A stretch of DNA of 64,000 nt from a phage: sequence record PZ386959.1. The stretch is one strand, 5' to 3'. This document shows, one piece after another, positions 27,582-28,627 of this stretch. A model generated the notes under the pieces. The model did not search any database and was not told where the DNA came from. It saw only the letters and a list, made by a program, of their open reading frames with translations. The position numbers and the translations under genes are program-made. The stretch's first letter is position 1. Each line of letters starts with the position of its first letter.

Positions 27582-28022
27582 TTAGAAAGGTTTTCTACGT
27601 TGCTTGTTAATGTTAGCTTTCATAGCAGCTAAATGGTTTTGCTGTTCAATTAGTCGTGAACGTTCTTGATGACTAAGTGCCATAGTGTTCACATTCTCAA
27701 TCGCTTGAGTGGCTTGCTTTAAAGCACGACCAATCTTACCAGACATTTTACGTTTTGCAATAGTTGCTTGATGCTTAGGTTCAACCACACGATAACCAAC
27801 ACCCATTGAAGCAACCAGATAAATCTTCTCTTCTTTAAGAAGCTTCTCAATAAACTTCTCAAGTCGGTTTAGACGTGTAAGCGCATAAGCCTTCATTTCA
27901 TCTTCGTACTTAACAATGTCACCTTGATAAGTTGGTTTCACAATACCTAAGAAGGTATCCATCTCAGAATGTGATACAGTGTCACCGTAACTAAACTTTG
28001 CTGCTAATGCTTTTGTATTCAT
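27582..28022 (-). CDS. hypothetical protein (cassette gene 2)
   Basis: 146-aa ORF with a basic, helical C-terminal half; its stop is followed on the minus strand by a hairpin/U-tract terminator. Confidence 0.4.
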   Translation of the reverse strand: MNTKALAAKFSYGDTVSHSEMDTFLGIVKPTYQGDIVKYEDEMKAYALTRLNRLEKFIEKLLKEEKIYLVASMGVGYRVVEPKHQATIAKRKMSGKIGRALKQATQAIENVNTMALSHQERSRLIEQQNHLAAMKANINKQRRKPF

Positions 28023-28024
28023 AA

Positions 28025-28627
28025 TTAAACGTTACCTTCTGAAATAACTTCTACAGAAAAACGACCAAAGCGTGGACGCCAATCACCTACACCACAAAGG
28101 TTGCCAGCATTTTCAAGAACCATCAGAAGTTCCTCTTTGGTGATTTGCTCTTCATCGAACATCAAACCGAACTCTACAGACCAGTCACGGAAGATTGGAC
28201 GGTAGCTCATAACTCGTGCTGTACCAATCTTAACAGACTTAGCATAGATGAAGTCTGGATTCTTAGCAAGTTCTTGTGGGTTTGCTGGACAGTTCTTAAT
28301 AGTCATTGGGAAGACTACATCTGTCAGCATAATGGCTCGGTCAATTACCTTACCAAGTTTGTTGAGTTTTGCACCAGACTTGATACAAGCCTCAATCATC
28401 TCACCGTTCATAACAAAACCTAGCTGCTCATCGTAGTAACAAGAGGTTACCAGTTGGCTTTCTGCTAAGAGCGCATAGTCTTCGTCAGTCTTTTTACGTT
28501 TACTGGACAGAGACTTGTGATATTTTGTCAGAGGGTTTAATGGGTCTGACAGCGTATCGTTATGGCTCAGGAAAGGACGAGTACCAGTGATTTTGATATT
28601 TAACAGTTTCATAGCATTTAGCTCCAC
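28025..28627 (-). CDS. hypothetical protein (cassette gene 1)
   Basis: 200-aa ORF separated by 2 nt from the downstream gene; no motif recognised; flanked upstream by intergenic module R2. Confidence 0.4.

Follow-up and report, generated by a model that had tools for sequence, protein, structure and literature searches.

VIPR (Viral Interference Programmable Repeat) systems were described in two bioRxiv preprints of 2026 from the Doudna laboratory, one reporting their discovery (10.64898/2026.04.26.720920) and the other their structure by cryogenic electron microscopy (cryo-EM) (10.64898/2026.04.26.720927). A VIPR system is made up of Vipr, a RAMP-like protein of ~20 kDa, the accessory protein Vap, and guide RNAs of ~100 nt, the vrRNAs, in which 9-16 YNNGG units are joined to a conserved pseudoknotted tail (10.64898/2026.04.26.720920). 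For phage SUSP1, vrRNA expression, assembly with Vipr, and silencing of target transcription were established by small-RNA sequencing, pull-down, GFP repression, and lambda assays (10.64898/2026.04.26.720920). In this study, a stretch of 64,000 nucleotides of phage DNA (sequence record PZ386959.1), referred to below as the window, was analysed around two minus-strand genes that lie between blocks of short repeats. It can be stated with high confidence that positions 27111-29000 (minus strand) form a complete VIPR locus, of type II and the SUSP1 clade, in a Felix O1-like myovirus. The VIPR family is already described, and the locus is a textbook member of it and not a new discovery.

The list of open reading frames (ORFs) contains two minus-strand ORFs, 28025-28627 (200 aa from a GTG codon) and 27582-28022 (146 aa), separated by a gap of 2 nt, and no other substantial ORFs are present between the repeat blocks at ~27160-27555 and 28690-28945. 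The original prediction for this DNA, in which two tightly coupled genes lie between repeat modules and are followed by a hairpin and U-tract, is confirmed by the ORF list and by the coordinates of the repeats and hairpin. The predicted gene of 200 aa holds as an ORF, but its GTG start probably does not. The true start of vipr is most likely the ATG at 28612 (195 aa) rather than the GTG at 28627, 15 nt further upstream, because the ATG has a GGAG 9 nt upstream of it, a Shine-Dalgarno site with which the GTG overlaps, and because the PDB sequence opens with MKLLNIK and the gene is annotated with 588 nt in most GenBank records.

In a sequence search of the PDB, the 195-aa protein matched 36pp_D, 'SUSP1 Vipr protein', with E=7e-128, and it is identical to SUSP1 Vipr (ALH47069) at 191 of 195 positions. 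The functional residues H17, K33, R39, E71, M72, K82, G87, K88, R138, C173, D177, W178, and R179 are all present; in the SUSP1 structure, these 13 residues make the contacts to GGY, to the skipped base, and to the non-target strand (10.64898/2026.04.26.720927). A further residue named for the pyrimidine pocket, 'T175', is V175 both in the window (codon ~28088-28090) and in the SUSP1 GenBank sequence, which brings the count to 13 of 14 named residues; the cryo-EM preprint has probably misnumbered or mistyped this residue (10.64898/2026.04.26.720927). Curated libraries gave no significant Pfam match and no NCBIfam or PADLOC match for Vipr or for the 146-aa protein, Vap1, and in PHROGs both fall into families of unknown function only. 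Every public record inspected labels vipr and vap1 as 'hypothetical' and leaves the guide RNAs unannotated, with the flanks given as 'repeat_region' or DR_4 in some. The statement in the original prediction that no motif is recognised in either protein was correct as far as Pfam, NCBIfam, and PADLOC are concerned, but not in the sense of uncharacterised proteins, since a near-identical protein has solved structures and is the subject of two 2026 preprints.

The repeat blocks themselves are far from chance. The modules number five, of which two lie upstream of the gene pair and three downstream of it, all on the minus strand, and GGYNN-periodic tracts are confined to this locus within the window. 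In a comparative set of 44 modules with 590 units from 11 phages, position 1 of the unit is a pyrimidine in 98%, position 4 a G in 81%, and position 5 a G in 97%, and the two NN positions have an entropy of ~1.9 bits each; the GGY scaffold is conserved while NN is hypervariable among close relatives. Two leader types (L1 and L2) precede the tracts, and tails of ~33-36 nt follow them. A 4-bp stem is kept in all 19 distinct tails through compensatory changes (GTAG/CTAC, GTGG/CCAC, AAGG/CCTT). Pairing of the loop with the 3' end over 4-8 bp, as expected of the pseudoknot helix, is likewise found in all 19 tails in five compensatory sequence variants: AGTCTCA/TGAGACT, AATCGGA/TTCGATT (TCCGATT in Moogle), TGGTAG/CTACCA, TGGCAG/CTGCCA, and, in satellites, GTCG/CGAC. 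In one satellite tail variant, the longest pairing run is in a different register. Rfam, searched at a permissive E-value, returned nothing for the repeat regions and holds no family for vrRNAs.

Short periodic intergenic repeats beside replication genes (ligase, polymerase) could also be elements that work as DNA, for example iterons of an origin, arrays bound by a protein or hotspots of recombination, and the modules clearly do recombine between phages. The core of vrRNA-E (AA GC CT AA AT AT TG GA; 27192-27246), for example, carries a type-B2 tail in the window and a type-A2 tail in the third module of phage bumzen, and therefore tracts and tails are shuffled by recombination between modules and phages. 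However, a role at the DNA level deserves next to no credence: the compensatory changes preserve an RNA stem and pseudoknot in the tails, and the YNNGG grammar is strand-specific with hypervariable NN. The homologous regions of SUSP1, moreover, give ~100-nt RNAs that co-purify with Vipr (10.64898/2026.04.26.720920), and the vrRNA pseudoknot was seen by cryo-EM (10.64898/2026.04.26.720927). The repeats are best regarded as vrRNA genes, named vrRNA-A to vrRNA-E from the head of the locus.

When the locus was compared with 5426 complete E. coli genomes (distant BLAST), the matches were limited to a short segment of the vrRNA-B tail, in 129 genomes, and they lie in integrated elements of 11-12 kb. 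The elements encode a large serine recombinase, a tape-measure protein, a Dit-like baseplate protein and often an HNH protein, and intact copies contain an unannotated stretch of roughly 2.5-3.3 kb. In the seven loci examined, each satellite carries one vrRNA of its own, with a type-B tail, and no vipr. Of the 5426 genomes, 482 (~9%) contain the family, which is often disrupted by insertion sequences and is inserted in a DUF72 gene next to yecN/yecD, or adjoining tonB/yciI, dinB or wrbA. The same satellite is the reported target of SUSP1 (10.64898/2026.04.26.720920).

The NN dinucleotides of the guides were scanned, with skips of 0-3 nt between them, against 15 satellite-bearing loci (290 kb, a large share of which is surrounding chromosome), with 100 shuffled-order versions of each guide as controls. 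With a skip of 1 nt, vrRNA-A matched at 20/22 positions inside the coding sequence of a ~235-aa 'gene X' (shuffled maximum 17), vrRNA-C at 21/24 in a site 54 nt upstream of gene X (shuffled maximum 19), vrRNA-E at 19/22 in a site 98-116 nt upstream of the same gene (shuffled maximum 18), and vrRNA-D at 26/30 inside the serine recombinase coding sequence (shuffled maximum 22). These four guides agree with the satellites at 86-91% of all positions and at 90-95% of core positions, which are the guide positions left after the scaffold-derived end units are dropped. Skips of 0, 2, and 3 nt gave background only for all five guides. The broader set of 44 guides was tested on the first 7 loci. At ≥90% of core NN, 19 of them matched with a skip of 1 nt and none with skips of 0, 2 or 3 nt, and none of the shuffled guides matched. 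Gene X belongs to no Pfam, NCBIfam or PHROG family and is labelled 'transposase' in some RefSeq records.

The best site of vrRNA-B, at 18/24 against a shuffled maximum of 19, is the orthologous recombinase-gene site in three tonB-inserted satellites. It includes 7 consecutive perfect units (14/14 nt), for which the chance expectation is estimated at ~0.01, and the recombinase gene of the satellite is probably the target of this guide as well. The matches of the window guides above shuffled controls, together with this partial one, all fall inside satellites and none in the flanking chromosome. In the annotated frames, the base skipped at the coding-sequence sites of vrRNA-A, -B, and -D is the third (wobble) position of the codon. 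The non-canonical units of vrRNA-A and vrRNA-D read YNN(A/T)G, apart from one that ends in GC. All five degenerate units of vrRNA-A still match the satellite target at NN, which suggests that the requirement for the first G of GGY is not strict.

A genuine VIPR system might nevertheless have its main targets elsewhere, i.e. in competing lytic phages, in prophages or, for self-regulation, in the phage's own genes. vrRNA-B lacks a secure satellite target, the scan covered only 290 kb of E. coli DNA and the window, the Pseudomonas fulva clade targets prophage regulators (10.64898/2026.04.26.720920), and of the 20 guides in the SUSP1 clade whose targets could be identified, 2 mapped outside the satellite (10.64898/2026.04.26.720920). 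Such main targets are very unlikely, however, since four of the five guides match the satellite well above controls and the fifth has a partial match in the recombinase gene that vrRNA-D also hits. Within the 64 kb window, every site stays below an 80% match, and no self-targets were found there, the best values of 63-73% being background (roughly 22 kb of the genome lies outside the window). Scans for the vrRNA-B core in the exact 1-nt-skip pattern found 0 matches in species-representative genomes and 0 in IMG/VR.

Satellite-encoded vrRNAs gave background only against the phage window and SUSP1, and they match other satellites, at best at 18/20. In a separate observation, vrRNA 2 of Salmonella phage SPJ41 matched the vrRNA locus of a satellite (L008 12008-12042) at 22/24 under the 1-nt-skip rule, so that this phage guide is aimed at a satellite guide gene.

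The region is 92-96% identical to that of >200 Felix O1-like myoviruses (Ounavirinae) of Escherichia, Salmonella, and Shigella. The vipr-vap1 coding block occurs in 118 phage records, always at 95-99% identity, and the adjacent ligase gene in 260; Felix O1 (NC_005282) has neither vipr nor vap1. Therefore, the cassette is accessory, and a presence/absence comparison bears out the original prediction on this point. The closest relatives are records classified as Felixounavirus, e.g. TH10, with 99.2% identity over the cassette.

An accessory cassette (~118 of ~260 related phages) of two proteins, neither of which has an informative Pfam, NCBIfam or PADLOC match, could be a protein-only moron, in which both proteins act on the host (takeover, toxin or anti-defence) and the direct repeats do no more than insulate or mobilise the cassette. 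This is highly improbable and effectively already refuted, because a guide-RNA-binding protein of solved structure shares 98% identity with the larger protein, and because the repeats have the exact vrRNA grammar and their dinucleotides match satellite DNA under the 1-nt-skip code only. The repeats, which had been taken for an insulating bracket, are five genes for guide RNAs and form the functional core of the system. The original prediction was right in taking the cassette for conflict-related and in singling out this locus as the most unusual one in the window. The specific suggestion of host takeover or anti-defence has to be abandoned in view of the near-identity to an RNA-guided DNA-binding silencer in SUSP1 and of guides that match a satellite.

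Vap1 is identical at 145 of 146 positions to the product of the SUSP1 gene downstream of vipr. A word-indexed search with Vap1 gave only three clusters, two of which are short fragments, and an exhaustive HMMER search gave 234 remote homologs, mostly at 21-37% identity. The AlphaFold2 model, built with 73 sequences, is very confident, with a predicted local distance difference test score (pLDDT) of 96.4, and combines a small N-terminal alpha/beta domain with a long helical hairpin. Foldseek found nothing significant for this model in the PDB, and the faint matches include several winged-helix DNA-binding domains; the sequence and the 73-member profile gave nothing below E=0.4 against the PDB. 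Type II Vap proteins are described as 'predicted DNA binding proteins', and vap1 enhances protection (10.64898/2026.04.26.720920).

It is most likely that VIPR guides and a CRISPR-related protein silence the satellite. As established by experiment for the near-identical SUSP1 system, one Vipr protomer would bind each pentamer, burying the GGY bases and presenting the two variable NN bases. The resulting helical filament would pair with double-stranded DNA in the order NNxNNx..., with one base skipped per unit, and the R-loop triplex so formed would block transcription with no cutting. In this way, the guides would direct Vipr to the 11-12 kb integrative satellite, at gene X with its upstream region and at the serine recombinase gene, and the phage would thereby silence a satellite that would otherwise exploit it. 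Vap1 would be an accessory factor that enhances interference, as published for SUSP1. We infer vrRNA expression, Vipr assembly, and target silencing in this phage because the proteins are 98-99% identical to those of SUSP1 and the RNA scaffolds are identical.

Several points weigh against this interpretation. The wet-lab evidence comes entirely from SUSP1 and P. fulva and is contained in preprints. Parasitism of this phage by the satellite is a deduction, for which the basis in the preprint is structural-gene homology (10.64898/2026.04.26.720920). Non-canonical units make up 5/11 in vrRNA-A and 5/15 in vrRNA-D, and so many of them could reduce the activity of these two guides. vrRNA-B, with 18/24 below its shuffled maximum of 19, has no statistically secure target, and even the best matches, at 86-91% of positions, fall short of 100%, with 15 of at least 482 satellites sampled. 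The 'DNA-binding' label of Vap1 is weak, since the fold search gave no significant match.

The features of the locus are listed in Table 1. From its head, the order is promoter, vrRNA-A, vrRNA-B, vipr, vap1, hairpin, vrRNA-C, vrRNA-D, vrRNA-E, and terminator. The SUSP1 and Felix O1 loci are headed by an identical promoter sequence, and vrRNA-B occupies the position of SUSP1 vrRNA1.

Table 1. Features of the VIPR locus in the window, listed from the head of the locus.
Feature	Positions	Strand	Details
Strong sigma-70-type promoter TTGACA-N16-TATACT, locus head	28973-29000	-	11/12 consensus matches
Leader L1, before vrRNA-A	28904-28942	-	palindromic hairpin CATCACTTAAGAGTCTT..AGGGTTTTTAAGTGATG
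vrRNA-A	28813-28903	-	tract 28903-28849, 11 units, 6 canonical YNNGG; type-A stem/pseudoknot tail 28848-28813
Leader L2, before vrRNA-B	28781-28812	-	TTTTTAAAAGGTCTTTAAACAGGGTCTTTTAA
vrRNA-B	28688-28780	-	tract 28780-28721, 12 units, 10 canonical; type-B tail 28720-28688
vipr 5' region	28628-28687	-	third GTCTT..AGGGT copy (28679-28653) and GGAG ribosome-binding site
vipr, predicted 195-aa RAMP-family guide-RNA-binding protein	28025-28612, stop included	-	PDB 36pp_D match
vap1, 146-aa VIPR accessory protein	27582-28022	-	145/146 identical to SUSP1
G+C-rich 6-bp hairpin and U-tract, after vap1	27548-27570	-	intrinsic-terminator-like
L2 leader and vrRNA-C	27429-27547	-	leader 27547-27522; tract 27521-27462, 12 units, 11 canonical; type-A2 tail 27461-27429
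L1 leader hairpin and vrRNA-D	27279-27428	-	leader 27428-27390; tract 27389-27315, 15 units, 10 canonical; type-A tail 27314-27279
L2 leader and vrRNA-E	27159-27278	-	leader 27278-27247; tract 27246-27192, 11 units, all canonical; type-B2 tail 27191-27159
Long hairpin and T-run closing the locus	27111-27159	-	19-nt arms

The leaders share a motif. GTCTT-N5-8-AGGGT, the motif of the 'R2 leader' in the original prediction, has 4 exact matches against 0.53 expected, all of them in the VIPR locus within the window, and in the wider form GTCTT-N4-8-AGGGT/AGGAT..TTTTAA it stands before each of the five vrRNA tracts and also in the 5' untranslated region of vipr. Its role could be that of a signal for processing, of a promoter used by a dedicated factor, or of a site bound by a locus regulator such as Vap1. 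No mention of it was found in the discovery preprint in connection with promoters, processing or leaders. A general phage promoter was considered for GTCTT..AGGGT and rejected, the motif being restricted to the VIPR locus within the window. Between the ligase gene and the VIPR promoter lies an ORF for a strongly hydrophobic protein of 48 aa (MLSTVILFILVVFVL...; 29008-29154, minus strand), at the site of which SUSP1 has an unrelated sequence. This ORF may encode a small membrane protein of the moron type, or may be spurious.

vrRNA modules also occur in relatives that have no vipr. In Felix O1 (NC_005282, 17633-17914), one complete module lies between the ligase gene and ORF87, with promoter, L1 leader, 11-unit tract, pseudoknot tail, and terminator, and ~100 vipr-less phage records share this compact arrangement with a single orphan vrRNA. 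Five orphans (from Felix O1, NJ12, JN01, SP4, and IME338) differ wholly in NN content and unit number, with a near-identical scaffold; their tracts have 9-12 units after the leader, of which 11/12 are canonical in SP4 when the leader-derived first unit is counted. None of the five scored above shuffled controls against the 15 E. coli satellites, but the test is weak, since 3 of the 5 come from Salmonella phages. One conceivable, though doubtful, explanation is that orphan vrRNAs are 'guide-only' elements that use Vipr in trans from co-infecting VIPR-positive relatives, or decoys that titrate Vipr. vrRNA genes may thus circulate and function independently of vipr; if this is true, Vipr would be a resource held in common within a network of three parties: phage, phage, and satellite. 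Orphan phage modules go unmentioned in the main text of the discovery preprint (10.64898/2026.04.26.720920). As a side observation on the distribution of the region, record GU169904.1, 'Staphylococcus phage SA1' (147 kb), contains the whole Felix O1-type region at 92.9% identity, and looks chimeric or mislabelled.

VIPR is a recently described form of RNA-based DNA recognition in which a guide is read discontinuously by a small protein, and Vipr has been proposed by the authors of the preprints as ancestral to CRISPR RAMPs. The biology of the locus is real and important, but already known. Correct annotation matters, since the inspected public records give the proteins as 'hypothetical' and do not annotate the guide RNAs. 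Moreover, the window yields a testable map of guides to targets, with five guides against two satellite loci. As a natural five-guide variant whose degenerate units track their targets, the locus bears on the strictness of GGY and on the design of reprogrammed guides. The orphan vrRNA in ~100 vipr-less relatives, including Felix O1, is a lead that goes beyond the main text of the discovery preprint.

Overall, the locus most closely resembles that of SUSP1 (KT454805; PDB 36pp). Both lie between the DNA ligase gene and an ORF87-like gene, and they share the promoter, leaders, tails, terminators, YNNGG grammar, and targeted satellite. They differ in that SUSP1 has 1 + 3 vrRNAs and the window 2 + 3, with vrRNA-A as the extra module; all guide dinucleotide sets are unlike, and vrRNA-A has only 6/11 canonical units. 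SUSP1 is also a Suspvirus, whereas this phage is nearest to Felixounavirus records. The type II VIPR of a Pseudomonas fulva prophage has the same combination of vipr, vap1, and vrRNA, the 1-nt-skip code, and the R-loop triplex. In contrast, it is carried by a prophage, its guides are directed at the lysis-lysogeny regulators of resident Pseudomonas prophages, and its proteins appear distant in sequence.

In class 1 CRISPR-Cas systems (Cas7-family RAMP filaments, Cascade), protomers of RAMP/RRM fold with a G-loop and thumb likewise polymerise along a guide RNA, and periodic base flipping and RNA-guided DNA recognition are published as further likenesses. VIPR differs from these systems in having no repeat-spacer array, no nuclease, and no need for a protospacer-adjacent motif, and in being encoded by a phage; its guide is read discontinuously, 2 of 5 RNA bases pairing with 2 of 3 DNA bases. 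The repeats here are tracts of 5-nt period inside modules of ~130-150 nt and not repeat-spacer units. No cas1, cas2 or other cas genes are found nearby, where the neighbours are the DNA ligase gene, small hypothetical genes, and a helix-turn-helix regulator, and there are no CRISPR-related Pfam, NCBIfam or PADLOC matches.

In function, a further parallel is offered by phage ICP1, which reportedly uses a full type I-F CRISPR-Cas system with adaptation against the PLE satellite of Vibrio cholerae and destroys its DNA (Seed et al. 2013). In both cases, a lytic phage would direct an RNA-guided system against its parasitic satellite. In contrast to that of ICP1, however, VIPR relies on one small protein with hard-wired guides and would act by transcriptional silencing.

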